Positions 4,463-25,200 of a DNA stretch of 64,000 nt are shown here, in pieces. Location: the NCBI GenBank assembly GCA_963733035.1, contig CAVTBU010000004.1, forward strand, positions 288,001 to 352,000, written 5' to 3'. This DNA is from Pirellulales bacterium. Lineage in GTDB: Bacteria; Planctomycetota; Planctomycetia; Pirellulales; PALSA-1355. Numbering within the stretch: position 1 is the first letter of the stretch; the number at the start of each line of letters is the position of its first letter. The notes under the pieces are model-generated. The model worked only from the letters and a program-made list of their open reading frames with translations, did not search any database and had not been told where the DNA came from. The translations under genes were made by a program, and so were the position numbers.

Positions 4463-4491
4463 TCGTTGTTGCGTCACAAGAGAATTGCCAA

Positions 4492-5169: not shown

Positions 5170-6587
5170 GTCGCTTGAGCATTCGCTGGCGAATCGCACT
5201 TTGGAACACGGCGGCCTTCGCCGTCATCCTGCTTGCCTTCGGGCTGGCAGTTTATTGTCTGCTTCGCAAAACGCACTACGATCAAGTCGACCGCCGCCTG
5301 CAGGCCCAATACAATAAAGTGGCCCAGCGCGATCGCGGCGGCTCCCAGTCAGGCGGCGAATTGCTGAGTTCCGGTAACAACCTGGCTTTTGTCATTGATG
5401 ACGGCGGTCAGGTTGTCGAGCACACGCCAACTTTGTCAAAGGCGGACATGGCTGTGGCCGCCTCGCCACGTGACTCCGCGCCTCGGTTTGACACCGCATA
5501 TTTGCCTACCGCCGGACATGTTCGTCGGCTGATCGGCAGGGTACCATCGTCGGCTTCACAAGGCACGATTGTGCTGATGGCACGGTTGGAACACGTCCAC
5601 GAAGAGCTCTGGGAAGTGATTCGTGCGCTCTTGATCACCGCTCCAATCACGCTGGGGGCTGCCGCGTCGCTCGCGTACTTCCTGGCGTACAAGGCGCTGT
5701 CGCCGGTCGATCATTTGCGGCAGATGACCGACGAAATCACCGCAGAACGGCTCGACCGCCGACTTCCGACACGAAATCCGGCCGACGAGCTCGGCCTGCT
5801 CGCGCAAACGATTAACTCGATGATCGCCCGGCTCGAACAATCGTTCAGCGAAATCCGACGTTTCACTTCTGACGCCTCGCACGAACTACGTACGCCATTG
5901 TCAATCATCCGCAGCGAGGCCGAGCTGGGAATGGCCACCAGCGACTGTCCGGACACGGCTCGAACGCGATTCGAGAGCATCGTCGAAGAATGCAATCGCC
6001 TGGCTAAGATGACAACGCAGCTATTGGTGCTCTGCCGCGAGGAAGCGGGCGTTGCGCAAATAGATCAACTACCCGTTCAATTGGGCGCGATCGTTTCTGA
6101 CTCGGTCGACGCGCGTCGAGGTCTTGCCGAAGCGAAGCGACAATCCTTGTCTGTCAATATTGAAGCCGACGTAATAGTGATCGGAAATGCTGACCGTTTA
6201 CGGCAAGTCGTGGACAACGTGCTGGAGAATGCGATCAAGTACACGCCTGAGGGCGGTCGCGTGAAAGTGACCCTGACCCGACAAAACGCGGACGCCGTGC
6301 TTTGCGTGCAGGACACTGGAATCGGCATCGATGCCGAGGACGTGCCGTCCATCTTTGATCGCTTTTTTCAAGCCGCCCAGGGAAGGCAGGACGCTGACGG
6401 CGCCGGCCTCGGCCTCAGCATCGTTAAGAGCATCGTGACTGCGCACCATGGTCGAATCGAGGTTCGAAGTGAACTCGACACGGGTTCGGTGTTTCGCGTT
6501 CTATTGCCTGCCTTCGACGTTGGCGCTTTGTCGCCCGACGATCGCAATACCATGGCAAACGGCAATCGAGCCCTGCCGAAGGAATAG
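5166..6587 (+). CDS. HAMP-domain sensor histidine kinase (heavy-metal-sensor-like)
   Basis: TTG start overlaps the regulator stop. Two TMs, HAMP (DELGLLAQTIN), H-box SHELRTPL, NAIKYT, DTGIGI, GAGLGL. Confidence 0.92.
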   Translation: MSRLSIRWRIALWNTAAFAVILLAFGLAVYCLLRKTHYDQVDRRLQAQYNKVAQRDRGGSQSGGELLSSGNNLAFVIDDGGQVVEHTPTLSKADMAVAASPRDSAPRFDTAYLPTAGHVRRLIGRVPSSASQGTIVLMARLEHVHEELWEVIRALLITAPITLGAAASLAYFLAYKALSPVDHLRQMTDEITAERLDRRLPTRNPADELGLLAQTINSMIARLEQSFSEIRRFTSDASHELRTPLSIIRSEAELGMATSDCPDTARTRFESIVEECNRLAKMTTQLLVLCREEAGVAQIDQLPVQLGAIVSDSVDARRGLAEAKRQSLSVNIEADVIVIGNADRLRQVVDNVLENAIKYTPEGGRVKVTLTRQNADAVLCVQDTGIGIDAEDVPSIFDRFFQAAQGRQDADGAGLGLSIVKSIVTAHHGRIEVRSELDTGSVFRVLLPAFDVGALSPDDRNTMANGNRALPKE

Positions 6588-6742: not shown

Positions 6743-7408
6743 CTAGACGCGCAGCCAGGAACTACTGCGGGTCTGGCGGATTTCGCCGAGAATGCGATGG
6801 GTGATGGCCATCTCCACCAACTCTGCCAGCGACCGGGTTTGCAGCTTTTGCATAATGGCGGCACGACGCATCTCGACCGCCCGTTCTGAGATTTTCAACT
6901 TCGACGCGATCACCTTGTTCGGAGTGCCGGCCAAAAGCAACTGCAACGTTTCCTGTTCGCGTATCGTAAGTCGCCTGATCCGCTCGTCGATCGTCCCATA
7001 CTCCGATTGCTGCCGACGCCATTTGGCGTCCAGCGCGAGGGCTTTCTGAACGCGGTCGAGCAACAGCTCGCGCTCGAATGGCTTTTCCAGAAACTCGATA
7101 GCTCCGGTTTTCATGGCAGCCACGGCCATCGAGACGTCCGCGTGAGCCGTGATGAAAATCACCGGCAGTCGCTTGCCCTCGCGAATGAGTTGCTCATACA
7201 GCTCAAGACCATTCTGTTGGGGCATCTTGACATCGAGCACCAAGCACCCCGGCATGGAGGGATCATAGTACCGATGAAAGCTTTCCGCCGACGGAAACCC
7301 GCTCGCGACAAACTTCATTGCCCTAAGAAGCGCCGTCAGGGAGTCCAGCATTTGGCAGTCGTCGTCAACGACAAATACAGTCGGTCGATTGGTTGGCTTG
7401 GGAAACAT
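6743..7408 (-). CDS. FixJ-like response regulator (REC + LuxR HTH)
   Basis: VFVVDDD, CLVLDVKMP, FITAHADV, FLEKPF, and HTH LTIREQE..NKVIA..L.IS.RAVE.RRAAIMQKL. Confidence 0.92.
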   Translation of the reverse strand: MFPKPTNRPTVFVVDDDCQMLDSLTALLRAMKFVASGFPSAESFHRYYDPSMPGCLVLDVKMPQQNGLELYEQLIREGKRLPVIFITAHADVSMAVAAMKTGAIEFLEKPFERELLLDRVQKALALDAKWRRQQSEYGTIDERIRRLTIREQETLQLLLAGTPNKVIASKLKISERAVEMRRAAIMQKLQTRSLAELVEMAITHRILGEIRQTRSSSWLRV

Positions 7409-9050
7409 GGATTGCAGATCGTGGTAGACAGAAGCTGACGACAGCACCGCCGATGTTGCGATTGTCGCCCCACAATCGGCCATGATATCGATCGAGTATG
7501 GTACGACTGATGGCCAGGCCCATGCCTAGACCTTCCTGTTTGGTTGAGAAAAACGGAGCAAATGATTCTTCCGCGGAACCGGTTGGGAAACCAGGTCCCG
7601 TATCCGCGACTTCCACAAACACATTTCCGGCCGCGGCGTAGGTACGGATGTCGATCCGACGTTGCTTGCGCGGGTATTCCGTCAACGCCTGTGCCGAGTT
7701 CTGCACTAGATTGACCAACACCTGTTGGATCTCAAGTGGCTCGGCCATGACCGATGTCGCGTTGATACACAAGCGTACCGTTAGCTGGACATCGGCCTGT
7801 TCGAGTTGGGGGCGGCAAAGTTCGCACACCTCGCGAACCAAACCGTTGAGTTCGACGAGGGTCCCCCCGCCCGCTCCGGTTCGCACGAAGTTCCGCATAC
7901 GCCGTACGATCTGGCCGGCCCGCAACGCAGCCCGTTTCAACTGCGCGAGGGTCACACGTGTCTCGGCAACGTCGAGCGTGCCGTTTTCCGCCGACAGTTC
8001 GAGCACGTCGGCGTAGTTGGTGATCGACGCGAGCGGCTGATTGATCTCGTGCGCTAACCCGGTGGCCAGTTGTCCCAGCGCCGTGACGCGCGAAGCGTGC
8101 GCGAGCCCTGCCGAAAGCTCGCGCATCCGCTTCTCGGCAGCTTCGCGTTCGGCGATTTCGTGTTCCAATGCGCGATTCGCCTCGACAAGCTCGCCGGTGC
8201 GCTCGATCACTCGCGTCTCCAACGCGTCACGCGCCTCGCTCAACAGCTCTGCGGTCACGCGGTGTTGCGACTCGCTCTCGGAAAGCTTAGCGATTTGTTG
8301 TCGGATCAGGTTTAGCGCCGGCTGCAGAACGACGAAATAAACACCAATCAACAATCCGAGTACGGCCAGCATCGCGGCCACACCACACCAGCGCAGAAAG
8401 TCGACTTGCCGACGCGACGACGCTTCAAGCATGTCCACGACGCGTTCCATCCGCTCAAGATACAGCGGCTCTGCGGCAAGAACTGTATCCAAATCCGCCT
8501 GTGTCGCGGGGTCCCTCGGCGCGTCGATGGGCGACGCCGAGGCGGCGATCCGGCCGGCCGCTAGTCGAATGGCCTGCAACTTCGGTTCAAGCGCTAGCAA
8601 AGCCGACTCAATTTGGTCATCGGCGACGGGCTCCAAACCCAGTGTCGCGCTACCTTCGAGCAGCCCTTGATGGGCCGCGCTCCACTCGTCAATCGCGATC
8701 GTGAGCTGTTCGCACCGCGTCTCTCGTTCGTCTGCATCCGAATGAGTCGCCAGGGCAATTGCGTTCTTCGCGATCTTCTGACTAAGCATCCGCTGCCGAC
8801 CGGCCACGTTGATCGCCGGCGCATAGAAATTCAGACGGACTAGCTGCGGCTGAATAATTGCTTCGTCGACGACCACCAAGAGTGCCACCGCCAGCAGAGC
8901 CAACAGATAGCGACGCGAAAGCAAACGCACCAGTGCGAGCGGATCGGTTGGCGACGCGACTACTTTCAGGCAGCGGACGGTCGTCGAACGTGGGGTTTCG
9001 GTGCTCTGCGATGTGCGCATCCCCAAGGCATGTAGAAAACCGCGTTCCAT
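7365..9050 (-). CDS. Sensor histidine kinase with NarX/PilJ-type periplasmic nitrate/nitrite-sensing domain
   Basis: TM1 is followed by P-box-like AINVAGRQRMLSQKIAK, then TM2 and a coiled coil. H-box AHEINQPL, DTGPG, FFSTK.EGLGMGL. Exact start uncertain (about 9020-9050). Confidence 0.88.
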   Translation of the reverse strand: MERGFLHALGMRTSQSTETPRSTTVRCLKVVASPTDPLALVRLLSRRYLLALLAVALLVVVDEAIIQPQLVRLNFYAPAINVAGRQRMLSQKIAKNAIALATHSDADERETRCEQLTIAIDEWSAAHQGLLEGSATLGLEPVADDQIESALLALEPKLQAIRLAAGRIAASASPIDAPRDPATQADLDTVLAAEPLYLERMERVVDMLEASSRRQVDFLRWCGVAAMLAVLGLLIGVYFVVLQPALNLIRQQIAKLSESESQHRVTAELLSEARDALETRVIERTGELVEANRALEHEIAEREAAEKRMRELSAGLAHASRVTALGQLATGLAHEINQPLASITNYADVLELSAENGTLDVAETRVTLAQLKRAALRAGQIVRRMRNFVRTGAGGGTLVELNGLVREVCELCRPQLEQADVQLTVRLCINATSVMAEPLEIQQVLVNLVQNSAQALTEYPRKQRRIDIRTYAAAGNVFVEVADTGPGFPTGSAEESFAPFFSTKQEGLGMGLAISRTILDRYHGRLWGDNRNIGGAVVSFCLPRSAIHVSQANQSTDCICR

Positions 9051-9227
9051 TGGCGTAGCGGCATTGTTCGTACGTTGGTCTGAAGTAGACGAACTTGTTT
9101 CCTGGAAAGCAGATGCGCTCGACGGACAAAACGCGGCCGGAGATGGCCGTGCCCACCGACGCGGCAGCGGTTGCCTTGAAGGACAGCAAGCCCGCGGCCG
9201 CCGAGCTGCCCTGCCGGCCCATGGCGC

Positions 9228-9262
9228 TTCGGATCTCCGAAAACCTCCTTCGGGTTTCCGAA
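9228..9262. promoter_or_regulatory. Two tandem palindromes TTCGG-N4-CCGAA; candidate response-regulator operators
   Basis: TTCGGATCTCCGAA (9228-9241) and TTCGGGTTTCCGAA (9249-9262) have a 21-bp period and lie in the divergent kinase/narK intergenic region. Confidence 0.6.
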
Positions 9263-9286
9263 GAATCGCACGGGTCGCGAGGAGGT

Positions 9287-9302
9287 GGGTACGGCGCTTG
9301 CT
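9287..9302 (+). promoter_or_regulatory. Candidate sigma54 (-24/-12) promoter of the narK operon
   Basis: GGGTACGGCGCTTGCT matches GG-N10-GC with TTGC, about 55 bp upstream of the narK ATG. Confidence 0.45.
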
Positions 9303-9356
9303 TCCCGCCGCCAGAACAACTTCCCGTCACCGAATAGCGTCGGAGCGATTCTGGAC

Positions 9357-10730
9357 ATGCAAACTAGCGGCAAGGCCACGCGAATCAGATTGTGCAACTT
9401 TTCTACCCCGCAGATGCGCGCGTTCCACATGTCGTGGTTGGCGTTCTTTCTATGTTTCTTCGCTTGGTTCGGCATTGCACCGTTGATGCCAATCGTGCGC
9501 GAGGAGATGGGGCTGACGAAGTCGCAGGTCGGTTGGTGCGTGATCGGATCCGTGGCGATTACTGTGCTGGCCCGGCTGTTCGTCGGCTGGCTGTGCGACA
9601 AGATCGGCCCGCGCCGAGCCTATGCTGGCCTGCTTGTGGCCGGATCGCTGCCCGTGATGGGCATCGCGCTCTCCAGTGACTTTCAGACGTTCCTCTTGTT
9701 TCGCGTGCTAATTGGCGCGATCGGCGCATCTTTTGTCATTACGCAGTACCACACTTCGCTAATGTTCGCCGGCAACTGCGTCGGTACGGCCAACGCCACG
9801 ACCGCCGGTTGGGGAAATCTCGGCGGCGGCGTGACGCAGTTCGTGATGCCGCTCGTTCTCGCCATGTTCGTCGGCGTGCTGGGATTCTCTTCGGCGGCCG
9901 GCTGGCGACTGTCGATGGTCGTAGCTGGCGTAGCCTGTGCTTTGACCGGCGCGGCGTATTTTATGCTCACGCAGGACACACCCGAGGGCGACCTGAAGCA
10001 GCTACGCGCCGCCGGTAAACTGGCCCCGTCGAAGGATGCCCATGGCGCGTTTCTGGAAGCTTGCCGCGACAAGCGCGTGTGGGCGTTGGCAATTATGTAC
10101 GGCGCCTGCTTCGGCATCGAGTTGACCGTGAACAACGTGGCCGCACTATACTTCGTCGACTACTTCGCCGCCTTTCAGGAAATGGAGACCATTCAGGCCG
10201 CCAAGTACGCCGGCCTGATCGCCGCCTCGTTCGGACTGATGAACCTGTTTGCCCGCACGCTTGGAGGCTTCTTCGGCGACAAATGCGGCGGCGTCTGGGG
10301 ACTCTCGGGCCGCGTCAAATGGCTGTTTGTCACCCTCTTCTTCGAAGGCCTGCTATTGATGCTGTTTTCGCAGATGAACGTCCTGGCGCTGGCAATCCCG
10401 GCGCTAGTCGTCTTCAGCCTCTTCGTACAGATGTCCGAAGGCGCGACGTTTTCCATCGTGCCCTTCGTGAATCGCAGGGCCTTGGGATCGGTGTCGGGAA
10501 TGGTGGGGGCCGGCGGCAATGCGGGGGCGGTAGCGGCCGGCTTTCTGTTCAAGGCCGAAGGGATTTCCTGGCCAACGGCATTCCTGGTCATCGGCGCGGC
10601 CGTGACCACGATTTCATTTCTGAGCTTCGCCGTCCGATTTGGCGAGGGAGCCGAGGCCGCGTTTGACCACCCATTCGAACCGTCCCGACGTCCCACCATC
10701 GCGTATCAGCCCGTCCTTCAGGAGTCCTGA
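9357..10730 (+). CDS. narK: MFS nitrate/nitrite transporter (NarK/NRT2 family)
   Basis: RAFHMSWLAFFLCFFAWFG, nitrate signature GTANATTAGWGNLGGG, FGIELT, ARTLGG, GMVGAGGNAG; about 12 TMs. Confidence 0.93.
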   Translation: MQTSGKATRIRLCNFSTPQMRAFHMSWLAFFLCFFAWFGIAPLMPIVREEMGLTKSQVGWCVIGSVAITVLARLFVGWLCDKIGPRRAYAGLLVAGSLPVMGIALSSDFQTFLLFRVLIGAIGASFVITQYHTSLMFAGNCVGTANATTAGWGNLGGGVTQFVMPLVLAMFVGVLGFSSAAGWRLSMVVAGVACALTGAAYFMLTQDTPEGDLKQLRAAGKLAPSKDAHGAFLEACRDKRVWALAIMYGACFGIELTVNNVAALYFVDYFAAFQEMETIQAAKYAGLIAASFGLMNLFARTLGGFFGDKCGGVWGLSGRVKWLFVTLFFEGLLLMLFSQMNVLALAIPALVVFSLFVQMSEGATFSIVPFVNRRALGSVSGMVGAGGNAGAVAAGFLFKAEGISWPTAFLVIGAAVTTISFLSFAVRFGEGAEAAFDHPFEPSRRPTIAYQPVLQES

Positions 10731-10748
10731 GCGAAGGAAGTCCCCGTT

Positions 10749-13584
10749 ATGGCTAACCCGGTCGAAGTCTGGAAGGCCGAAAAGCACGGGCTAGACGTGT
10801 GGACCGACGTGGAGCGCCACGCGGTCGCCGGCACGCCGATGAAGCAAATCGATACGGCCGACCTGGAGCGCATGAAATGGTACGGCTTCTTCTACCGCAA
10901 GCGCGACGAGCCTGGTCGGTATATGAACCGCATCCGTATCACGGCTAATGAAATGACCGCCGCGCAGGCCAAGGAGATCGCCCGGCTGGCCTATGAGTTC
11001 GGCCACGGCATTGTCGACGTCACCACCCGCGCCAACGTGCAGATTCAAGGGATTTCGATCGAGCGCCTGCCCGAAGTGCGCGAGCGGCTCGAGGCAGTCA
11101 AGCTGACGTCCAAGCAAACGGGCCACGACAACATCCGCAATGTCTTCGGCCACCCGTTCAGCGGACTCATGCCTGAGGAGCTGATCGACACTCGCGACTT
11201 GTGCCACCAGTTGACGGCGTTGTTTGTCGACAGCCGAGAGTACTCCGACCTGCCGCGCAAAATGAACATCTGCATGAACGGCACGAATGAGCACTCGGCG
11301 CATTTCTGGACGCAGGACATTAGCTATCTGGCCACGAGAACGGACAACGCCGAAGTGTTGTTTCGCGTGCTAATTGGCGGGACGCAGGGGCAGAACCCAC
11401 ATCTGGCGTGGCACTTGCCGGTGTTGGTGGCTCCGCATCAAGTTGTGGACGTGACTCGATCGATTCTCGATTTGTATCGAGCGAAGGGTACCCGGGACAA
11501 GCGCAGCGTGGCCAGGTTCTGTTTCTTGATGGATGCCATCGGCGTCCAGGGCGTTCTCGCCTGGCTGGCGCAAGATCTCGACTTTCCGCTGGTACCATGT
11601 CACCGCTCTCCCGCGCCCTCGCTGGCGCACGATGAGCTAGTCGGCTGGTTTCCGCAGGCCGATCGTCAAATGTGGACGATGGGATTGTGCGTTCCCTTGG
11701 GACGCATGACCTGGCAACAACTTGAGGGATTGGGAGTGTTGGCCGAGCGTTGGGGCGACGGTGGGCTGCGAACCACGCACGAACAAGGTATGGCGGTCGT
11801 CAACATACCGACCCGGCACAAACAAGCGGCGCTGACTGACGCCGCCGCATTAGGGCTGAGCATCCATGCCGATGCGCTGGATCGCAACACGATGGCCTGC
11901 ACGGGCAGCCAGTTCTGCAATATCGCGGTCACGGAAACCAAGGGGCACATGTTCCAGTTGCTGGAGAAGCTCCGCAAGAAGCAAGTTCGCCTGGAAGGCA
12001 TTCGCATTCACATGAGTGGCTGCCCTTCGAGTTGCGCAGCACTTCACGGCGGATATCGGATTGAAGGGCGTGCGGGTTCGGCGTTTGCTGGGCACGCGTG
12101 AAGGGTTCGACGTCTACCTCGGCGGCGGTATCGGAGACGGCGTACAGATGGGCCGTACGTTTCGACTCGGCGTTGACATCGATCAACTCCCCACCTTGAT
12201 CGAAGAAGTCGTCACGCAGTACTACCTGTCTCACAAGCCGGGCCAGACATTCAGCGCTTATTGGCGCGAACAACTTCCCGCGGACAGCTCCGTCAAAGTC
12301 TCGGACGACGATTTCAATCCGCCAATTTGGACCTGCGAGAAGTGCCGTCACGAGCATGTCGGCGTCGACCCGCCCGTCTTTTGTCCCTCGTGTGCTGGCC
12401 TGCGACGGTATTTCGCTCGGCTCGAAGATGCAGCTGACCGGAACGGGTCGTCCACCGAGGGGGAAGCTGCGGCTGCGGAAGGCCCTGCCCGCAGTGATGG
12501 ATTCGTGTTCGCCGCCGAGGAATCGTCGATACCAGAGGGTGCGGGATTGGATGTCAAGGTTGGCGGAAAAGAGCTGGCACTGTTTCGTGTCGGTGGCAAT
12601 ATCCACGCGATCGACGCGATCTGTCCCCATGAGGGCGCCCCGCTGTCGCAGGGTGCGCTACAAGAAGGAGTCGTCACTTGCCCGTGGCACGGTTGGACGT
12701 TCAACGCCTGCTCCGGTTGCAGCATCGATCCGCCCAACAACGATGTCGGCCACTACGATACGCTCGTCGAGGAGACAGGCGTGTACGTGAAAGTAACGTC
12801 CGAACGACTCGCGTCCAGGGCCGCGATGTCGGTACGCCGCGCCGTGAAGCCGGTCGAAGCGCTGCTGCGTCTCTCCCAGATCATCGACGAAGCGCCCGAC
12901 GTGCGGACGTTTCGATTTGACAATCGCGCCGGCGTGCTGCCGCTGGACTATCCCGGCAGATTCGTCAAAATTTGCGTGTGCGCCGAATCGCAGGAGGTCC
13001 GGCGCAGCTTCACCATTAGTTCGTCGCCCCATGAACGAGCGTTTGTCGACCTCACAATCAAGCGGAACCCGAGCGGCGTGGCATCGCAGTGGCTGTTCGA
13101 GCACGCTCGAACCGGCGACGAGTTCAAACTAAGCGGGCCGTACGGCGGGTTCTATTTCGACGGCGAACAGCATTGCGAGCCGCTGGTGCTCGTGTCGGCC
13201 GGCAGCGGCATCACGCCGATGATGAGCATCGCTCGTTGGTGGCGAGCCCAAGATCTTGAAAACCCGTGTGCGTTCTTCCATGGCGCGCGGACGGCCGACG
13301 ACATTTTGTTTCACGCCGAATGTACACAACTGGCCAGTGAGTCGGTCAACTTCGCATACCATGTGTCGTTGTCTTGTCCCAACGAATTCTGGCAGGGATT
13401 GAACGGTCGGCTTACCCCAGAAACCTTGATACGGCAAGTCCGTGAACCGATGCTATGCCGCTACTTCCTTTGCGGTCCCAATGATTTCATGGATTGCCTC
13501 CGCAATGGGCTGTCCGCGGCCGGCGTGCCAGCCCATCGAATCCACACGGAACAGTTCCACAATTCCGCCGCGGTCAAGGCATGA
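10749..13584 (+). CDS. nirA: Siroheme nitrite reductase (NirA-type) fused to rubredoxin-like, Rieske [2Fe-2S] and FAD/NAD(P)-binding reductase domains; split by one frameshift near 12035
   Basis: NirA motifs KWYG, TTRANVQ, DNIRN, LPRK, ACTGSQFC and GCPSSC continue as AQHFTADIG in the other frame. Then CEKC-x12-CPSC, CPH..CPWHGW, RSFTISS, GSGITP, LCGP, TEQF. Confidence 0.85.
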
Positions 13585-15317
13585 CTTCGCTTCCCATCAT
13601 CAATGTCGCGATCACTTCAGCGAGCACCTCCGGCGGCCACAAGGCCGAGCTCAGCGGCGAATTCTCGTTGGTTGAACTCTTGCTTCGCGAGCAGCAGGAC
13701 CTAACGGCCGTCGAGCGGTTCGCACGCCACCACGACACGGGCGCCTTTCCAGCAGCCGAGAAACAGTATCGTTCCTTGATGCCAGCCACTTCACCTGGGC
13801 CGGGCCAGCAATACGGGTTTGACGTTGCGCTTGACCGTTGCAGTGGCTGCAAGGCATGCGTCACGGGCTGCCACGTGTTGAACGGCCTTGACGAAGACGA
13901 GACCTGGCGCGACATCGGCTTGCTGGTAGGCGGAACGCGCTCGTCGCCGGTCGCGCAGCACGTAACCACGGCCTGTCATCATTGCCTAAGCCCGGCGTGC
14001 ATGACTGCCTGCCCGGTAAACGCGTACGAAAAAGACGCCCACACCGGCATCGTCAAGCATCTCGATGACCAGTGTTTCGGCTGTCAATACTGCACGATGG
14101 CTTGCCCTTACGAGGTTCCCAAGTATCACGCGGCCAAGGGCATTGTGCGCAAGTGCGACATGTGTGCCACGCGTTTGGCCGCCGGCGAGGCCCCGGCTTG
14201 CGTGCAGGCTTGCCCGCACGAGGCTATCTCCATCCGCTTGGTGGACGTGCGGGAGGTGATTGAGGACGCCGAGGCCGCGAACTTCCTGCCGGCGGCGCCG
14301 GATCCGCAAATCACGTATCCGACGACCACCTATCGAACGCGACTCGTATTTCCCCGCAATATGCTGCCGGTCGACTATTTCCAGGTGAATCCGCAACATC
14401 CGCATTGGCCGCTGGTCGTGATGCTCGTGCTAACGCAACTCTCGGTGGGTGCCTTTGCCGTGGGTATGGTGCTCGACGAAATTCTCCACGGCAGCCTGTC
14501 TGCCACAATGAGGCAGTTCCATGGTCTGACCGCGCTAGTATTCGGGCTCGTGGCAATGGCGGCCAGCACGTTTCACCTTGGCCGGCCTCAATATGCCTAC
14601 CGGGCGATTCTCGGATTGCGGCATTCGTGGATGAGTCGCGAGATCCTGGCGTTTGGACTCTTTGCCGCCTTGGCATGTACCTACGCCGGCGCGTTGATGC
14701 TGCCGGTGCCATGGATGCTGGGCCGTCGAGTGCTGCCGTGGCTCGGCATTGGCGTCGTGGCCGCGGGCGGCGCCGGGATCGTCGGATCGGTGATGATCTA
14801 TGCCACTCTCGGACGCGACTATTGGAGCTACACGCGCACCTCCCTGCGCTTTTTGCTCACGGCGGGCCTCCTGGGCACGGCCACGGCGTGGCTTACTGCC
14901 GCGTTGCTTTCCCTGGTGAATCCCTTAGTAGGAACGGAGGCAATCCTCGCGTCCGTGGGAAGGATACTCTGTCCAACGCTGTTGGTGCTGGCCTCGGTAA
15001 AGCTGCTCTGGGAGGCCTCGCTGCTCCGGCACCGGATGTCGCGCTCCATGACCCAGTTGAGACGCTCTGCGACGCTGATGACGGGAGAGCTGTCGAACTA
15101 TACTTTGGCCCGATTTGCCACAGGCCTGGCAGGCGGCATCGTGATTCCGGCAATCCTGCTCTGGAGAATGCGATCGGGAGACGCACCTGCCGATCCGGTC
15201 GCACTGGCGGCGCTAACGGCAGTCCTCTTTTCGGCCTGCCTGACCGGCGAGCTTCTGGAACGCTATCTCTTTTTCGCCGCGGTGGCCGCGCCGCGGATGC
15301 CGGGAGCCGTTCGCTGA
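13581..15317 (+). CDS. DmsB-like multi-[4Fe-4S] domain fused to DmsC/NrfD-type membrane anchor
   Basis: ATGA overlap with the upstream gene. Cys groups [49 protein letters not shown]. About 8 TMs with [25 protein letters not shown] and [10 protein letters not shown]. Confidence 0.9.
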
Positions 15318-17530
15318 TGGGATCAAATGATGCCAAACCGGGCTCTGGGCTCCTCGGCGTGGCCCGCACGGGACCGCTGACACGAGAGCTGCTGCTCGTG
15401 CCGGGCGACTTCGGACTGGGCCATGTTCCCGCTAAGGCGCAGCCAGATGCGACAACGCGCACAGTGTGCGGCTATTGCTCGACGGGCTGCAGTCTAGACG
15501 TGCACTTGAAGGATAATGCGGCGGTCGCGCTTTCGCCGACGGTCGACCATCCGGTGAACCTCGGCATGGCCTGTCCCAAGGGATGGGAAGCGCTTAGCGT
15601 CTTGCAGTCGCCAGACCGAGCCGGAACGCCGCTGTTGCGCACCGATGACGGGCCGCTGTCGCCAGTAAACTGGGAGCAGGCGGCAAACGCGTTCGTCGTG
15701 CAAATGAAGCGCATTCAGGCAGCCCATGGCAACGAGGCCATCGCTTTTCTCAGCACTGGCCAAATCGCCACCGAGGAGATGGCCCTGCTCGGGGCAGTGG
15801 CCAAGTTTGGCATGGGCATGGTGCACGGCGACGGCAACACGCGGCAGTGCATGGCCACTGCGGTGGTCGCCTATCAGGAATCGTTTGGCTTCGACGCGCC
15901 GCCATTTACGTATGAAGATTTCGAGTTGTCAGACGTCTTGGTCTTCGTGGGCAGCAACGTCTGCATCGCGCACCCGATCATGTGGGAGCGTGTGATGCGC
16001 AATCCGCACAATCCCGAAATCGTGGTGATTGATCCCCGCGCGACGGAAACCGCGATGGCGGCCACGCAACACCTTCCGGTGCGACCCAAATCGGACTTGA
16101 CGTTGCTTTACGGCGTCGCCAGGCTGCTCGTCGAGCGGGGCTGGATTCACGCGGAGTACATCGCCGCACACACCCACGAATTCGAGGCATTTCGAGAATT
16201 CCTGATTGCATTTCCGCTGGAGCGCGTCGCCGCGGAAACCGGGATCGCCGCCGGCAAGCTCGAGTGGCTGGCCCGCACGATCCACGAAGGGCAGCGTGTT
16301 TCATTCTGGTGGACGATGGGCGTCAATCAAAGCCACCAAGGAGTGCGCACCGCGCAGGCGCTGATCAATCTTGCGCTGATGACCGGCAATATCGGCCGGC
16401 CAGGCACGGGCGCCAATTCGATTACCGGGCAGTGCAATGCCATGGGGTCGCGACTGTTTAGCAATACGACGAATCTGCTGGGCGGTCGCGCGTTCGACGA
16501 TCGTGTACACCGCCGTGAAGTCGCCGACATCCTCGAAATCGACGAACGACGCATTCCGCGCAACAAGGGCTGGTCGTACGACCGCATCATGGAAGGAATT
16601 CTCGCTGGCAAGATCCGCGGCCTCTGGGTCATCTGCACGAACCCGGCCCATTCGTGGATCAACCAGTCGCAAGCCCGCGACATTCTCGACCGGCTTGATT
16701 TCCTCGTCGTGCAAGACATGTACACCACGACCGAAACCGCCGAAATGGCCGATCTAGTCCTACCCGCCGCAGGCTGGGGAGAAAAGGAAGGCACATTTAT
16801 CAACTCAGAGAGGCGAATTGGCTTGCACAAGAAAGTCGCGCATGCTCCAGGTGCTGCCCTTTCCGACTTCGCGATTTTCCAATTGTTGGCGGAGTATTGG
16901 GGATGTGGTGAGATGTTTCGCAAGTGGCAGTCACCCGAGGCCGTTTTCCAGATCCTCAAGCGCCTGTCGGCCGGCCGGCCGTGCGACTTCAGCGGGATCG
17001 ATGATTATCAGATGCTCGACGGCGCGGGCGGGATTCAATGGCCGTACCCAACTCAAGACCCGGACGATCGGCCGCAGCGCCGGCTGTTCAGCGACGGGCG
17101 ATTCTACCATCCGGACGGCAAGGCCCGGTTCGTGTTCGAAGAAACGCATGCGATGCCCGAGCAACCAAACGAACATTACCCATTCTTGCTGCTCACCGGG
17201 CGCGGTTCGGCCTCGCAGTGGCATACCCAAACCCGCACGGCGAAGTCCGCCGTGCTGCAAAAGCTCTACTGCCGCGACGCGTATGTTGAAATCGCGCCTG
17301 CCGACGCTTCGGAGCTCTCGATCGTGCGCGGTCAATGGGTGCGCATCTCCTCCCAGCGAGGAAGCATTCTCGCCAAGGCCGTGATCATGCCGACCGTGCA
17401 GCCCAAGCAACTCTTCGTGCCGATGCACTACACTCAGACCAACCTGCTGACCGACGCCGTATTCGACCCCTACTCTCGGCAGCCGGCATACAAAGCCTGC
17501 GCGGTAAGGATCGATGCCCTGGCGCACTGA
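15317..17530 (+). CDS. nasA: Molybdopterin nitrate reductase catalytic subunit (NasA/NarB/NapA family), no Tat signal
   Basis: ATG overlaps the upstream [15 protein letters not shown] [4Fe-4S] motif, NTRQCM Mo-ligand Cys, [46 protein letters not shown]. Confidence 0.88.
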
Positions 17531-17879
17531 CCACCTGGACCAGATTCTTAGACGCGGTTCGTCTTCCGTCGCCACGACTCATAAAGCCCTGCCGCAACGA
17601 GCCTTGCAGCATGGACGCTTTCAAGCATGGGGCAGCCGGTGATCCTGGTGCTGCGCAATTACAATCTGGGGCGATTGCGACCGGCGACTTCCGCTATAAC
17701 TACGAGAAGTGGTGGCTGCCATCGAAGCCGATCGTGATGCGGCTATGGGGTCCCTGGTCCTAAGTAACAAGCGTTCGGTTCGCGCATCGGATTTGATCGG
17801 AATTGAATTTCGACAGGCTGATCCTCGACGGCTAGCCATGCCATAGTTTCCGCAACCCCAATTCGCAGGAGTCGCCAAA

Positions 17880-18311
17880 ATGCAAACAGATCGACGACAC
17901 ATGCTTGCGTTCGTTTTGTCGCTAGTTGTGGTGGCAAGTCCATTGACCGTGGTTGCGGGCGACCCCGCCGAGGCCCCCCTCGCTGATCGTCTTATTGGAA
18001 CCTGGGTCCTGGTCGGCACACCGGAAAAGGTGGGCGAAGTCCCCAAGGCCGGCGGCCGACTCAAGTTCTTCACCGGCAAATGTTGGTGCATCACCCAAGC
18101 CGATCCAGCGACCGGTAAGGTGCGGTTCCATCATGGCGGAACCTACAGCCTGGATGGCAACAAGATGACGTCGGTCGTCGACTACGCCGGCGAGTCGACC
18201 GAATTCCGCTTAAACACGACCAGCAACTTTGAAATCAAAGTCGACGGCGACACCTACACGCAAATCGGCCTCGACAATCCCTACACCGAAGTCTGGAAAC
18301 GCGTAAAGTAA
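17880..18311 (+). CDS. Small secreted hypothetical protein, lipocalin-like beta-barrel
   Basis: Signal peptide, LIGTWVLV, GGTYSLDG, EVWKRVK. Confidence 0.7.
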   Translation: MQTDRRHMLAFVLSLVVVASPLTVVAGDPAEAPLADRLIGTWVLVGTPEKVGEVPKAGGRLKFFTGKCWCITQADPATGKVRFHHGGTYSLDGNKMTSVVDYAGESTEFRLNTTSNFEIKVDGDTYTQIGLDNPYTEVWKRVK

Positions 18312-19249
18312 CTCGTCAAGAGACTAACGCCCTTTACCCCCTTGGAATTTACAGCGCTGCGACAATCGGCTGTCCGTGCCACTCTGCGCCTACGCTGCCA
18401 GTGCGCAACGCGCGGCCGGCGAGTCTTGGTCCGCGGCCGCCAGGCCAGCGTCGTGGGTCTTGCCAATCTGCAGGCGAGTATGCCGCGGCGGCTGGCCCGA
18501 TTGCAAGCGTGCGAGCGCGCGCGAATTCTTCGGCGTCTTGACCAACCTCCAAGTCGGTCGACGACTTGCTCAATCTGTCGTTACTTGGCCCGGTTCGGAA
18601 TTCGCAAAGTTTTCGAGTGGCCTTTTTTCGGGCTGAAAGTTGCGCGCACTTTTCTTTTCGCCTTTTGTAACCTGAAAAATGACATATGTCGTAGCCCGCA
18701 GCTTTCGCATTTTGCCCGAAATGAAACATGACGGTCCTCCGCGCGTCCCCTGTGCAGAATTTGCCGACCGTAGGCTAGCCCAACGGCTGGCTCGATTGAT
18801 AGAGGCAAAGTTTTGGAGGGGCCTACAACACGCGGCACGGCAGGAAGAATACGAGCAAGACGCCGCAATGCAGAGTCGCTACCAGTTGCAGCCGTGAAGA
18901 TCCACTGCCGCCATCGACGTTGCGGCCGAACTGCGCCGAGCGGGCTCGGCGCCACGCAAGCCCGTAGCGCGCGATGCGCAACGACCGCCGCTTCCCGCGG
19001 CTCGACCCTTTCGGGCGACCAACTTTTTTGCCCGGAATTCTCTGGACAAAGCTAGCGGGTTCCTTTACTCTGACGGGTGGCGTGTGGGCCGCCTCCTTTT
19101 GGATCGTTTATTTTTCGCGTGGCCCACGCGGACGAAAATCGGGTCGACAGTTGGCAGGACGAAGAGGCTCGCGAGGGCAACGCGAGAGTCCGGCCGAGCG
19201 AAGTGCGTCTTATTTTCGTTATCGCGTTCCTACGGACAGAGGAAGAGCC

Positions 19250-22200
19250 ATGTCGACCTATCGAACGGTCCTGCGCGGACCAAGCGCGGTTGCGCGCCCC
19301 CAGCGTTTTGCACGTTCCCGCAATTTCGCTTCCAGCCGGTTTTCCAGCCTCAGGCTCGAAGCCCTCGAACAGCGTCACCTGCTGACGGCCACCGTGGTCG
19401 AAGTGACCACCACCCAGGACGTCATCGATCCGAACGACGGCCTCGTCTCCTTGCGCGAAGCCGTGCTCGAAGCGAACGCCTCGCCGAATGACTACCAGAT
19501 CGTGCTCCCCGCCGGCACCTATACCTTGACAATCCAAGGGGCGAACGAAGACGCCGCGCTCACCGGCGACTTGGACATTCTCAACAGCGGCAGCGTCACG
19601 ATCGTCGGCGCCGGCGCCGACACGACGACGATCGACGCCTCGGGGCTGTTCGATGCCGGGCTTGGCTACGGCGACCGGATCTTTGACGTCCAAACCAGCG
19701 CGGCTCTCGATCTGACGGGCCTTACGCTGACAGGCGGGAGTGCTCCAACGGCTAGTACTTCGTCCGGCGCAAGCGGCGGAGCTATCCGAAACGCTGGCGG
19801 CCAATTGACGGTAATCGATTGCACGCTTTCGAACAACGACGCTCCCCTTGGCCTAGGCGGCGTGATCTACAACCTCGGCCAACTGACAGTCACGGGCAGC
19901 ACTTTCAGCGGCAACACCGCGCACTCCGCCGGCAGCGCCGTATACACGAATTCTTCACAATCCAGCTCGATCGGCAGTAGTGAATTCCTGGGCAATTCGA
20001 CAACGGTCGGGAGCGGTGCCCCCATCTACCAAGATGGAGGCCAACTGTCCATCACGGGCTGCTCAGTCTCCGGTACTGATGGCGACGGGATCGCCAATTA
20101 TTATGGTCAGCTGACGATCGTTGACAGCGACGTGACAGGCAATAGTGGGAGTGGACTTCACAACGGCGGCGGAGGCGTCCTAACTGTCGTTGACAGCCTG
20201 ATCTCCGAAAACGCCGCTTCAGGAATCTTCAACGATATGAGCTCGCAACTGGAGGTGGTGGGTTGCACGATTTCCAACAACACCGGCGGCGCCTATGGCG
20301 GCGGAATCTACACGACGGGCCCAACGACCATTACCGCCAGCACCATCACTGGCAATACGGCCCGGGCGGGAGGGGGAATCGCTGCAAACAACGAGTTCCT
20401 TCCCGGAAATGTAGTTTCGATTGTGAACAGCGTGATCTCCGACAACGTGGCGACCGGACATGGCGCCGGGGGAATCTTAAGCGAAGGGGAAATGACGATT
20501 TCCGGCAGCACGATTTCCGGCAACCACGCCGCCGGTGAAGGAGGCGGAATTGTCAAGTTCGTCATAGGGAATCCCACCACCTTGACGATCAGCAACAGCA
20601 CGGTCCAGGGCAACTCGGCCACCACCGGCGGAGGAATCAAAAACGATGGCTCTCCGCTGACCATCACGGAAAGCACCATCTCAGACAACACCGCCACGCT
20701 TGACGGAGGGGGAATTCTCAATAGCGGCGTGTGGTTACTCGAGACGAAAATCATCAACAGTACCGTCTCGAACAATAGTGCGAACCGCGATGGCGGTGGC
20801 GTGTATAGTGGGAGACGGTTGACGGTCTCCAATAGCACCATCACCGGCAATCGTGCGGATGCCGATGGTATCGACGGCGGCCTGGGTGGCGGATTTGCCC
20901 TGACGCCTAACGCCGTTGCCTTGCTGCAAAATACGATTGTGGCCGGCAACCTTCGCGGTGCCGACCCCGGCGCGGCCGACAGCGATATCGAGCTGTCCGG
21001 CGGCCAGGTCGATCCGGCCAGTTCCTATAACCTCATCGGCGACCCCAATACGGCCGGTGGCCTGGTGAATGGCACCAACGGCAACATCGTCGGCGACGCG
21101 ACTGGGAATGCGCTCGACATCAATGCGATTCTCGATCCAAATCTGGCCGACAATGGTGGGCCGACGCTGACGCACAAGCTTGTCGATGGCAGCCCGGCCA
21201 TCAACGCGGGGGATCCGGCGTTCGATCCGAACGCCACCGACCCGCCGACGTTCTTCGACCAGCGGGGCGTGGGCTTCCCGCGGGTCAAGAACGGCCGCTT
21301 GGACATCGGCGCTTACGAGGCCGACGCCAACCTGATTGGGCCGGGCAATGTGATCACGGTGGGCACGTTCGACGACTCGTTGGCCGTCGACGGAGTGTGG
21401 TCGCTGCGCGAGGCGGTGATGTACGCCAACAGCCATCCCGGCGACTTCACCATCCAGCTCCCCGCCGGCACGTACACGCTCACCCGCCAGGGAGCGAATG
21501 AAGACGCGGCGCTGACCGGCGACCTCGACATTCTCAACAACGGCAGCGTCCAGATCGTCGGCGCCGGCGCCGACACAACGACGATCGATGCCTCGGGATT
21601 GTTCGACGCCGGACTCGGCTACGGCGACCGGCTGTTTGATGTACACGGCGCCACGCTAAGCCTCGACGGCCTTACGCTCACTGGCGGTAGCACGCCGACG
21701 TCTGGTGACGACGCGGACACGAGCGGTGGGGCCATCCGTAATTCCGGTGGTGAACTGTTCGTCACCGGCAGCACGCTCTCGAACAACACGGCCAAGGGCA
21801 GCGGCGGTGGAATCTATAGTAGCGAAGCGGTTGTCACCATCGACGGCACGACTATCTCAAGCAACGCCGCCGGAAGTGGCGGTGGAATCTATTGCAATCA
21901 GAGCCAGCTAACGGTTCGTAATTCCACACTTTCTGGAAACTCTGGAGAAGGCGGAGCAATCAGTAGCCACTTAGGCGAAACGTCGATCATTGACAGCACG
22001 CTGTCGGACAACAATGCGCCCTACGATGGCGGCGGCATCCTGAATTTCAGCAGTGATCTTCGTGTCGTCCACACGATGTTCGCCGGCAACACCTCGCAGT
22101 TCGTCGGCGGAGCGATCTACAGCCGTTCAGTTCTGCGACAAGACGTTTCGGTGGTCGATAGCACTTTCGTTGATAACTCCGCTGCCGGCAGTGGTGGTGG

Positions 22201-25200
22201 GATCTGGATCGACAACGGTTCAATATTATTTACAAACACCACTTTTTCGGGAAACTCCGCCGTCCTCGGTGGCGCAGTCTACAACAACGAAGGGCAAATT
22301 ACGCTAACGAACAGCACGGTTTCCGGCAATTCTGCTGGGGGCGGCGGCGGTATCTACAATTTCTCGCGCGGCAACATGACGATCACCGGCAGCACCATCT
22401 CCGACAATATGGCAAACGGCAGCGGAGGCGGAATCTATAGCGGCGGGCAGTTGCTGCTGCAGAATAGCACGGTCTCTGGGAACACCGCGTCTGACGGCGG
22501 CGGAATCTCTGGCTTTGCTTCGGTCATCGCTTGCACGATTTCGGGAAACTCGGCAGTCGCCAGCGCGACCTCGGGAGACTCACTATATGCCGGCGATGGT
22601 GGTGGGATTAGCGGTAGTGTCACACTCATAGACAGTACCGTCTCGGGGAACTCCGCCACGAACGACGGCGGCGGAATCTTTGAAGGTGGAACCATCCGCA
22701 ACAGTACCATCGTCGGCAACCGCGCCGACTCGGATGACGACGGTGCGGGAATCGGCGGCGGAATTTGCGCAGGGTATGGGAGCTTGCAAAACACTATCGT
22801 CGCCGGGAACGTTCGCGGCGCCGCGGCGGCAGAAGAGGCCAGTGACGTAGAACTTGAATCGGCGACCCACTTCACCGGAGGTTCCTATAACCTGATCGGC
22901 GACCCCCACACGGCCGGCGGCCTGGTCGATGGTACCAACGGCAACATCGTCGGTGACGCCAGCGGCCGTGCGCTTGACATCAATGCGATTCTCGATCCAA
23001 ATCTGGCCGACAATGGCGGGCCGACGCTGACGCATAAGCTCCTCGACGGCAGCCCGGCCATCAACGCGGGGGATCCTGCGTTTGATCCGAATGCCACCGA
23101 CCCGCCGACGCTCTTCGACCAGCGGGGCGTGGGCTTCCCGCGGGTCAAGAACGGCCGCTTGGACATCGGCGCTTACGAGGCCGACGCCAACCTGATTGGG
23201 CCGGGCAATGTGATCACGGTGGGCACGTTCGACGACTCGTTGGCCGTCGACGGAGTGTGGTCGCTGCGCGAGGCGGTGATGTACGCCAACAGCCATCCCG
23301 GCGACTTCACCATCCAGCTCCCCGCCGGCACCTACACGCTCACCCGCCAGGGGGCGAATGAAGACGCGGCGCTGACCGGCGACCTCGACATCCTCAACAA
23401 CGGCAGCGTCACGATCGTCGGCGCCGGCGCCGACACAACGACGATCGATGCCTCGGGATTGTTCGACGCCGGACTCGGCTACGGCGACCGGCTGTTTGAT
23501 GTACACGGCGCCACGCTAAGCCTCGACGGCCTCACGCTCACCGGCGGTAGCACGCCGACGTCTGGTGACGACGCGGACACGAGCGGTGGCGCCATCCGTA
23601 ATACTGGCGGTGAACTGTTCGTCACAAACGACACGCTTTCGAACAACACGGCCAAACACAACGGTGGCGGAATCTATGGCATCCAGGCGGTGATCAACGT
23701 CACCGGCACCACGCTTACCACACTCAGCGCAGACCTCGGCGCTCTTTACGCCGACGACCATTCTACCGTCACCGTCACCGACAGCACTATTTCGGACGTC
23801 ACCGGGTTTGGGATCATTTGCAAGCAGTGTCAATTAACTGTCCGCAATAGCACGCTATCTGGAAACTTGGGCGGAGCAATCCGGCTCTTCTCGAGCGAAA
23901 CGTCGATCATTGACAGCACGATTTCTGAAAACAGAGGAAATCTAGGCGCCATTAACAATCAGGACGGCGATCTTAGCATCGTCCATTCAATATTCGCCGG
24001 CAACACCAGCTTTGCGGACGTCGGCGGAGCGATCACTAACTATAATTCCCAGAACGTCAATTCCAAGAAACTCTCGGTAGTAGATAGCACGTTCCTCAAT
24101 AACAACGCCTATTCTAATGGCGGCGGCGCGATAGGTAGCTACGATGGGACGGTTCTCATTGCGAACAGCACCTTCTCGGGCAACTCCGCCTACAATGGCG
24201 GCGGTGCGATCTTCGTGAGCGGCGGGTCCTTTACGCTCACCAGTAGCGTGGTTTCCGGCAATTCCGCCCAACTGGAAGGCGGTGGAATCGAGAGTTGGGG
24301 TTGCCGCATGACCATCACCGGTAGCACCATCTCCGACAATACCGCAGCCAGAGGAGGTGGAATCGTGGAAACCAGAGGCCGCGGGCAATTACTGCTGCAG
24401 AATAGCACCGTCTCTGGGAACACCGCGCTCAATGATAGCGGCGGCGGAATCTGGTCCTCTGGCTCTTCGGCAATCATCAACAGTACGCTCTCGAACAATA
24501 GTACGAAACTTGGTGGCGGTGGCGTGTATAGTACGGGACCGTTGACGATCAGTAATAGCACCATCACCGGCAATCGTGCGGATGCCAATGGTATCGACGG
24601 CGGCCTGGGCGGCGGATTTGCCCTGATCAATAACGCCGTTGCCTTGCTGCAAAACTCCATCATCGCCGGCAACGTCCGCGGAGCCGGTCCCGGCGCGGCC
24701 GACAGCGATATCGAGCTGTCCGGCGGCCAGGTCGACCCAGCCAGTTCCTACAATCTCATCGGCGACCCCCACACGGCTGGTGGCCTGGTCGATGGCGTGA
24801 ACGGCAACATCGTCGGCGATGGAAACGGCAATTCCCTCGACATTCACACGGTTCTCGACACCACGCTGGCCGACAACGGCGGCCCGACTTTGACGCACGC
24901 CCTGGTGCCGGGAAGCCCGGCGGTCAACGCGGGCGATCCGGCGTTCGATCCCAACGCGACCGATCCGCCGACGCTCTTCGATCAACGCGGCGCGGGTTAC
25001 AGCCGCGTCGTTGGACGGCACGTGGACATCGGGGCATATGAATCTGGTGCCACGTTCCAGACGGTCGTGACCGGCCGGCAAATCTTTTACGACAACTCGA
25101 CCTTCAATGGTAACGTTTCCGGCGTTGGTCCCTTCGATGCGTTCGCCATCGCCACCGACAAACAGGCCCTGCTGCCTGGTGGCAGCCTGGCGGGGCCGCA

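Follow-up and report, generated by a model that had tools for sequence, protein, structure and literature searches.

This study concerns a row of four genes for nitrate uptake and reduction in a Pirellulales bacterium (contig CAVTBU010000004.1), in which a molybdenum (Mo) enzyme subunit of the Nas/Nap type is encoded next to a single protein that joins an iron-sulfur domain to a membrane anchor. All coordinates are positions in a window of 64,000 nt, by which we mean the whole stretch of DNA analysed; the source genome comprises 6.65 Mb in 10 contigs and is 92% complete. The genes stand tightly packed on the forward strand: narK (9285-10730), a nitrite reductase gene (10749-13584), the gene for the iron-sulfur/membrane protein of 578 aa (13581-15317; hereafter the fusion protein) and the gene for a 737-aa catalytic subunit carrying Mo-bis(pyranopterin guanine dinucleotide) (Mo-bisPGD; 15317-17530). 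Overlaps link the last three. The ATG of the fusion gene (13581-83) overlaps the stop codon of the nitrite reductase gene as ATGA, and at its other end the fusion gene stops with a TGA (15315-17) whose last base is also the first of the Mo gene's ATG (15317-19), bearing out the translational coupling through TGATG that a first-pass annotation of this DNA had claimed. The anchor is thus encoded upstream of the Mo subunit. The same annotation had put narK into the operon; narK does lie on the same strand and in the same gene row, but it is not adjacent to the fusion-Mo pair, since the nitrite reductase gene, unmentioned there, intervenes.

The catalytic subunit was assigned to the Nas/Nap clade, without a twin-arginine (Tat) leader, by Pfam and NCBIfam searches, active-site motif and phylogeny. 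Pfam recognises only Molybdop_Fe4S4, Molybdopterin and Molydop_binding in it, and finds no Fer2_BFD domain. The FS0 motif reads C51-x2-C54-x3-C58-x27-C86, and its four cysteines are invariant in all 21 sequences of an alignment of relatives (A2). The active-site stretch is N174-T-R-Q-C178-M179, with Cys178 as the Mo ligand. NTRQCM is shared by the window protein and all planctomycete neighbours compared (10/10), and N-x-R-x-C-M occurs in eight of nine Nas/Nap-type reference genes, annotated as such or lying in a Nas context on plasmids and chromids (the haloarchaeal NasA is not matched by the pattern). Annotated fdhF genes instead show C-A-R-x-(C/Sec)-H in three cases of four, the Niallia fdhF being unmatched by the pattern. 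When aligned with NapA of D. desulfuricans (2jim), residues C178, M179, M334 and R379 pair with C140, M141, M308 and R354, which we take to be the active-site residues of NapA, and all four are invariant in the 21 relatives. The Nas/Nap motifs and the lack of both a twin-arginine leader and a BFD domain, as described at first reading, are all seen in the sequence.

Scores from hidden Markov models (HMMs) are on their own ambiguous for the identity of this subunit. The two NapA models score 325 and 313 bits (cut-offs 904 and 931), and NarG is absent among the 25 NCBIfam matches. A careful IQ-TREE analysis of 26 rows (LG+C20+F+G4 by posterior mean site frequency), in which Synechococcus NarB, Bacillus NasC, Klebsiella NasA and clostridial NarA were left out, unites the window Mo subunit, ten planctomycete Mo subunits and a Cetobacterium protein in one clade (support 100/100). 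This clade is nested in a nitrate-reductase clade of 20 rows containing Nas, Nap and haloarchaeal NasA (100/99), and the four FdhF rows stand apart (99/98). Placement in a tree of the dimethyl sulfoxide (DMSO) reductase family had been set beforehand as a test, and the subunit falls with Nas/Nap and not with the formate dehydrogenases, a separation that follows from both the Cys-Met motif and the tree. Judged by these characters, the catalytic subunit belongs to the nitrate-reductase clade, with a predicted Cys-Met active site.

The first 48 residues of the Mo subunit (15317-15460) form a conserved extension before FS0, without a twin-arginine motif. An L-[TS]-R-E-type motif is found in this extension in 73 of 147 related Mo subunits. 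NarG keeps a vestigial Tat motif as a chaperone-binding site, and by analogy the motif seen here may have the same history and use.

The fusion protein consists of an N-terminal extension (residues 1-75), a DmsB-type domain with four [4Fe-4S] clusters (about 76-260) and an 8-helix domain of the DmsC/NrfD type (276-566). Pfam places Fer4_11 and related 4Fe-4S families at 125-218 and DmsC at 274-565 (47 bits; cut-off 22.3), and the best NCBIfam match of the iron-sulfur half is TIGR02951 DmsB (126.8 bits, below the equivalog cut-off of 214). Sixteen cysteines, spanning residues 87-211, fall into four groups (C-x2-C-x2-C-x3-C, C-x2-C-x4-C-x3-CP, C-x2-C-x2-C-x3-CP and C-x2-C-x11-C-x3-CP); fifteen are invariant and C90 is nearly so in an alignment of 70 sequences (A1), and all 16 are kept in each of 156 related loci. 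Hydropathy gives eight transmembrane helices for the membrane half, so that the four iron-sulfur groups and about eight transmembrane segments of DmsC type suggested by the first-pass annotation are recovered in full. An AlphaFold model built on A1 (mean pLDDT 89.3, pTM 0.88) shows the same eight long helices together with two short ones at 336-345 and 492-501. Foldseek searches of the PDB with the N-terminal half return PsrB (2vpw_B; TM 0.74 on the target) at the top, with ArrB and FdnH, while the C-terminal half matches ActC of alternative complex III (TM about 0.5) and PsrC (2vpw_C; TM 0.63, E = 4e-3). By sequence, only the iron-sulfur half has matches in the PDB, and the anchor matched nothing there. 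The protein thus corresponds to both non-catalytic subunits of a Psr/Dms-type enzyme, joined into a single chain.

The residues of the quinol site were traced by adding DmsB and DmsC of E. coli (from NC_000913.3) to A1. His65 of DmsC (LHLGSP) aligns with H332 of the fusion protein (FHLGRP), Glu87 (LSNEI) with E354 (MSREI) and the Arg of GELIGR with R561, and the counterpart of Ser82 is S349. None of the 156 loci departs from H332, S349 or E354, and R561 is present in all 152 that cover its position. Ser82, His65 and Glu87 are listed as the quinone-site residues of DmsC and SoeC in a review of the NrfD family (PMC8076601), which also refers to His65 and Glu87 mutants in which quinol oxidation is blocked and describes Arg271 as a conserved residue in the middle of the membrane. 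The anchor can therefore probably bind quinol.

The N-terminal extension of the fusion protein (residues 1-75; 13581-13805) has the consensus L-I-x-x-L-L-x-E-Q-Q-x-L-T-A-V-E-R-F and is modelled as three short helices with pLDDT values of 50-60. It may contact the Mo subunit.

Several observations bear on the side of the membrane at which the enzyme works. Neither window protein carries a twin-arginine motif or signal peptide, and no Tat-like motif occurs in the first 60 residues of any of the 70 fusion relatives of A1. A loose Tat pattern upstream of FS0 is present in two of 147 Mo-gene stretches, which include part of the gene before. With the N-terminus inside, the window fusion protein has 13 Lys and Arg residues (K+R) in its inner loops vs 4 in its outer loops; the means for A1 are 13.4 vs 1.4, and the inner count exceeds the outer one in 70 of 70 sequences. 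The loop bearing H332...E354 is an inner loop, which puts the quinol site on the same side as the iron-sulfur domain. By the positive-inside rule, a location of both on the cytoplasmic face is supported, and the predicted topology agrees with the cytoplasm-facing anchor claimed earlier. Both ends of the DmsC chain are located on the side of DmsB, which makes a direct fusion of DmsB to DmsC geometrically natural.

The combination of the two genes is not confined to this genome. Among 8000 candidates scored, 7943 were homologues of the fusion protein, and a library clustered at 50% identity holds 9942 matches at E <= 1e-3 and 857 at E <= 1e-30. We compared two sets of loci: the 80 closest genome loci, labelled Planctomycetota or 'bacterium' except for one from Actinomycetes (L068), and 76 further loci collected via an alignment led by a Myxococcota protein, with flanks of only 4 kb; some contigs are present in both sets, so that not every locus is independent. 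Downstream of the fusion gene and on the same strand, a Mo gene with 55% identity or more is present in 73/80 and 75/76 loci, respectively, with a median gap of 21-24 nt. Of the eight loci that lack such a gene, seven end within 253 nt past the fusion gene and the eighth (L058) has a Mo gene of 41% identity. On this synteny the partnership of fusion and Mo genes appears to be obligate. A nitrite reductase of the NirA or NirB-NirD type is found within the flanks of 69/80 and 64/76 loci, and a narK homologue within those of 51/80 and 30/76. The commonest cassette has the order seen in Lacipirellula (L048): narK, a NirB-NirD fusion, the iron-sulfur/DmsC fusion and the Mo gene.

The carriers in the second set include complete Sorangium genomes, Polyangiaceae, Candidatus Poribacteria, Vicinamibacterales (Acidobacteriota) and one metagenome-assembled genome labelled Elusimicrobia, as well as Phycisphaera, Isosphaerales and the cultured Alienimonas chondri; the motif TRQCM(A)(T/S) is present in 74 of these 76 loci. 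In an even sample of Planctomycetota, 25 of 300 other genomes match at E <= 1e-60, among them 16 of 16 in one family. Ten distant cluster representatives carry few organism names, with Myxococcota and Planctomycetota named once each. The first-pass annotation had pointed to Planctomycetota and Verrucomicrobiota as places to look for the arrangement: the pair is conserved across the former, as the first set shows, and for the latter there is a lead only, from Atlas clusters of the fusion protein in which Verrucomicrobiota is the commonest phylum. Taken together, the design of the gene pair is common and widespread. No NarG over the cut-off was found in five complete carrier genomes. In the plasmid collection, none of 849 matching records covers at least 80% of the fusion protein. 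One match, on a Chelatococcus plasmid, proved to be an FdnGH-like dehydrogenase with a separate NrfD, of the 'FqoABC' type described in PMC8076601, and does not belong to this system.

The neighbouring gene 10749-13584 encodes, on Pfam and NCBIfam evidence, a siroheme nitrite reductase followed by a Cys4 motif, a Rieske domain and an FNR-like FAD/NAD(P)H module. In the window it is split into two frames. The open reading frame (ORF) 10749-12101 covers positions 12-443 of 513 of the ferredoxin-nitrite reductase model, and the ORF 12016-13584 contains the NirA C-terminus and then the Cys4 motif, the Rieske domain and the FNR-like module. Both parts are in one frame in related loci, and the homologue in locus L003 is a single ORF of 947 aa with all domains. 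The break lies in ...AGTTGCGCAGCACTTC..., two bases short near 12033. We compared contigs of four public runs from two studies over 11500-12600; these are 90-99% like the window and seem to derive from close relatives or the same population. Three of the four runs have 'GC' inserted behind 12033 (X1, depth 3.6 of 3.6; X2, 4.1 of 8.16; X3, 3.05 of 3.05), and the fourth (X4) has no depth entry at this position. Worked out by hand, two extra bases behind 12033 restore ...SSCAQHFTADIG... in the reading frame. The frameshift probably arose as an error of assembly at a short GC repeat, unless it is a strain variant. The restored NirA-Cys4-Rieske-FNR protein, unusual in its construction, is predicted to be an NAD(P)H nitrite reductase complete in itself.

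Other routes for nitrate were sought in the rest of the genome. Profile searches of the 92% complete assembly gave no match to NarG or NrfA, nothing over the cut-off for NirB or NirK, and neither a NirS over the cut-off nor a convincing cytochrome cd1, and the NasC model finds just the window gene and a YdeP-like protein. With NarG, NrfA, NirB, NirK/NirS and further Nas/Nap genes missing from these searches, the operon would seem to be the sole route by which this organism converts nitrate to ammonium. Two genes of the MqnA/D family lie over the Pfam cut-off, indicating that the futalosine route to menaquinone is present, and the organism is accordingly predicted to make menaquinone.

Upstream of narK, and divergent from it, two genes on the reverse strand (6743-9050) encode a two-component system. 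The first is a response regulator of the LuxR/NarL type (6743-7483; Response_reg 90.8 bits, GerE 55.1 bits), whose ORF overlaps that of the kinase, so its true start may lie further downstream; the second is a sensor histidine kinase with a PilJ/NarX-type N-terminal sensor domain (7365-9050; PilJ 49.9 bits, HisKA and HATPase_c). A PilJ-type kinase also adjoins the cassette in the Lacipirellula locus. The position of the NarX-like kinase and the NarL/LuxR-type regulator beside the operon suggests control by nitrate sensing, and the kinase is probably the nitrate sensor of the operon. The transporter gene narK encodes a NarK-type nitrate/nitrite transporter of the major facilitator superfamily (MFS_1 98.7 bits; TIGR00886 285.5 bits, below the cut-off of 311.7). 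A scan of 8900-18400 gave no promoter-like sites, and 12 terminator-like sites in the same interval compare with 9.0 ± 3.1 expected, i.e. chance level. Further away, the window begins with an RND efflux pump (AcrB-type, 1039 aa), a membrane-fusion protein and an OmpR-type regulator with a HAMP histidine kinase (18-6587). Downstream of the operon, an ORF of 2346 aa (18974-26014) with right-handed beta-helix, NosD-like and Chlamydia PMP repeats probably encodes a giant surface protein.

From these features we lean towards the view that the fusion protein and the Mo subunit form a cytoplasm-facing menaquinol:nitrate oxidoreductase used for assimilation, similar to an inverted DmsABC or SoeABC. 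All computational tests agreed with the interpretation offered by the first-pass annotation. The product of the overlapping genes would be a molybdoenzyme of the DmsABC/PsrABC type, built of three modules and oriented toward the cytoplasm. Nitrate would be imported by NarK, and menaquinol would be oxidised at the cytoplasmic face of the membrane domain, in the DmsC-type site. Electrons could then pass through the four [4Fe-4S] clusters to FS0 and on to the Mo-bisPGD of the Nas-type subunit, where nitrate would become nitrite, and the adjacent siroheme nitrite reductase, with its own NAD(P)H module, would take nitrite to ammonium. In this organism the main role would be nitrate assimilation, and the respiratory quinone pool thus probably supplies the electrons for reducing the nitrate used in growth. 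As protons would be released and consumed on the same, cytoplasmic side, the step itself should be electroneutral, as is that of E. coli fumarate reductase, and energy would be conserved upstream, at the reduction of quinone. Menaquinone has a potential of about -74 mV. The nitrate/nitrite couple stands at about +433 mV (PMC10100899), so that the step from menaquinone would be thermodynamically easy. We infer the binding of the subunits, quinol as the donor, electroneutrality and the physiological role from homology, topology and synteny. The first-pass annotation also saw a link to respiration or to the dissimilatory reduction of nitrate to ammonium (DNRA); the context here is purely assimilatory, and that part has the standing of a possibility.

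Several points weigh against this interpretation. The evidence that would suggest one physical complex of the three modules is confined to translational coupling and constant synteny, and the conserved residues of the quinol site give neither the direction of electron flow nor the donor. The best NCBIfam match of the Mo subunit is TIGR01591 Fdh-alpha (493 bits; cut-off 666), and the nitrate-reductase models NasA_Halo NF041323 (456.3 bits; cut-off 1000) and NasC NF047855 (448.8 bits; cut-off 1100) likewise stay below their cut-offs. Moreover, two of the five complete carriers have a second Nas-like gene (G146:C1:4799985-4802087 and G042:C1:1274019-1275866; NasC model 781 and 493 bits), which means that the membrane-anchored pair is not always the sole nitrate reductase and can coexist with another. 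The remaining points concern NAD(P)H. The DNA directly upstream of the fusion gene codes for an FNR-like NAD(P)H/FAD module, and a Rieske domain occurs in every cassette type annotated. In Gimesia, a stand-alone FNR-like protein of 267 aa (L076:7140-7943; FAD_binding_6 and NAD_binding_1) is encoded between nirBD and the fusion gene, which hints that NAD(P)H may enter the iron-sulfur chain; since NirB has its own flavin domain, the extra flavoprotein could serve the nitrate reductase.

These last observations lead to an alternative in which the enzyme is fed by NAD(P)H, through the FNR-like module or through NirB and a Rieske centre, into the iron-sulfur chain or the Mo subunit, with the membrane domain as a mere tether or a secondary outlet to the quinone pool. 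The NasB-NasG-NasC system of Paracoccus, in which a Rieske protein is thought to feed NasC, is a model for the NirB/Rieske route. Such a feed would fit the FNR-like module that ends 0 nt before the fusion gene in the window, as well as the Gimesia gene, which stands directly upstream of the fusion gene and beside a complete NirB-NirD; the stand-alone FNR-like query has matches in 19/80 and 6/76 loci, and the partners of the Cetobacterium relative of the Mo subunit (44% identity) are an FAD oxidoreductase and a small soluble 4Fe-4S protein. However, an FNR-like gene is missing from most cassettes while the membrane fusion is retained in all of them, the module in the window belongs to the nitrite reductase, whose polypeptide requires it, and residues of the quinol site that are invariant in 156/156 loci are hard to square with a mere tether. 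Because most cassettes lack the FNR-like gene and all quinol sites are intact, we regard feeding by NAD(P)H as unlikely.

It is also conceivable that the enzyme is first of all a dissimilatory electron sink, a quinol:nitrate reductase facing the cytoplasm, itself non-electrogenic, through which complex I could keep running without oxygen, with assimilation as a by-product. Fumarate reductase is a comparable sink that allows complex I to run in the absence of oxygen, and the architecture found here is that of respiratory enzymes. A NarX/NarL-like two-component system lies beside the operon, with a PilJ-type kinase again in the Lacipirellula locus, but many nas operons are induced by nitrate too. 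The cassette is present in Sorangium as well, which is a strict aerobe, and it is nearly always joined to a nitrite reductase of the assimilatory type; in the genome studied here, the sole route for nitrite is the cytoplasmic siroheme enzyme. For Lacipirellula parvula PX69, nitrate reduction in the API 20NE test and anaerobic growth are reported as positive, and the operon is listed under anaerobic respiration (PMC6995999), as such a sink would predict. On the whole we consider this role improbable as the primary one. That the Mo subunit is a formate dehydrogenase or acts on some other substrate, as its TIGR01591 match, its best PDB match by sequence (F420-dependent formate dehydrogenase at 329 bits vs 323 bits for Desulfovibrio NapA) and the name 'formate dehydrogenase iron-sulfur subunit' given to many fusion proteins by JGI could suggest, is scarcely credible and is ruled out by an active site of Cys-Met instead of Cys/Sec-His together with the separation from FdhF in the tree (99/98 and 100/99), the TIGR01591 score being under its cut-off and the constant neighbours being narK and a nitrite reductase.

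The idea has a precedent in print at the level of annotation, and the design is therefore not wholly new: the operon is named in one sentence of the genome paper of L. parvula PX69 (Dedysh et al. 2020, PMC6995999), which also puts NarK and an NAD(P)H nitrite reductase close to it. Full-text literature searches, which did not cover subscription journals, found no other mention and no biochemical study. The arrangement is not mentioned in the available part of the MopB review (PMC10100899), and the NrfD review (PMC8076601) does not contain the term 'nitrate reductase'. Four further candidates (PMC10949509, PMC5673643, PMC10892978 and bioRxiv 10.1101/2020.10.19.345819) concern, in the portions available, other enzymes.

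As regards its wider meaning, the argument concerns a boundary that is usually drawn sharply. Nitrate assimilation in the textbook sense has two electron sources, ferredoxin/flavodoxin and NADH, and the textbook quinol-linked nitrate reductases are Nar and Nap, both dissimilatory. A quinol-fed, cytoplasm-facing enzyme of the Nas type would be a further combination beyond these. We see about equal reason to accept and to doubt the broader proposal that the gene pair represents a third, quinol-dependent class of assimilatory nitrate reductase, spread across several phyla and wiring nitrogen assimilation into the respiratory chain, which could double as an oxygen-independent sink. If this were true, the first two electrons for nitrate would be spent at the potential of quinol, after complex I had conserved energy, and the energy cost of growth on nitrate would need recalculation for the carriers. 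The sink role would amount to a non-Nar, non-Nap nitrate 'respiration', or to DNRA together with NirBD, and the clean split between assimilatory and respiratory nitrate reduction would be weakened. Counts of 'nasA' in metagenomes would also need a different reading, because the partner gene is now labelled as a DMSO reductase anchor or a formate dehydrogenase subunit. The hypothesis is directly testable in cultured strains.

Compared with known systems, the proposed enzyme seems to combine parts that are otherwise found apart. The closest parallel in orientation is SoeABC of Allochromatium vinosum and Aquifex aeolicus, described as the only NrfD-type molybdoenzyme placed on the cytoplasmic (N) side, with an inverted anchor (PMC8076601). 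Like the proteins studied here, it has no Tat signal, it is composed of a Mo-bisPGD subunit, a four-cluster protein and an 8-helix anchor, and it has the same quinone-site residues on the same side. However, electrons in Soe run in the opposite direction, from sulfite to quinone, its catalytic subunit belongs to another clade, and SoeB and SoeC are separate where one chain is found here. DmsABC of E. coli and PsrABC of Thermus match in module order, fold and the residues of the quinol site, but these enzymes are exported by Tat, face the periplasm, are of the DMSO or polysulfide catalytic type and have separate subunits, whereas the present arrangement is predicted to be inverted and is fused and Nas-type.

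On the catalytic side, the window enzyme resembles NasA, NasC and NarB in its Tat-less, putatively cytoplasmic state, its Cys-ligated Mo, its partners (a transporter and a siroheme nitrite reductase) and its tree clade, NarB rows not being in the tree. Those enzymes are soluble and receive electrons from ferredoxin/flavodoxin, or from NADH through NasB/NirB. The MopB review likewise lists them as cytoplasmic (PMC10100899). The window enzyme differs in having no BFD-type C-terminal domain, in scoring below the NasC and NasA cut-offs and in being always accompanied by a membrane quinol module. With NarGHI it would share the orientation toward the cytoplasm, the attachment to the membrane, the service by NarK and the supply by quinol. 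In NarGHI the Mo ligand is Asp, and the dihaem NarI oxidises quinol at the outer face and builds a proton gradient; the present enzyme belongs to an unrelated catalytic clade and has a haem-free anchor of the DmsC type with a predicted quinol site at the inner face. NapA differs from the window Mo subunit by its Tat signal and its Nap partners, for which no nap genes were found in the operon by Pfam annotation. The closest protein in the plasmid collection is the Mo protein of Cetobacterium somerae (L088, plasmid p1), at 44% identity and sister to the window clade (100/100), which is paired with soluble partners, the small 4Fe-4S protein and FAD oxidoreductase noted above, and with a TDT-family transporter, and which has no membrane domain. 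It looks similar to the clostridial NarABC type, and it is a soluble sister of the membrane-anchored system described here.

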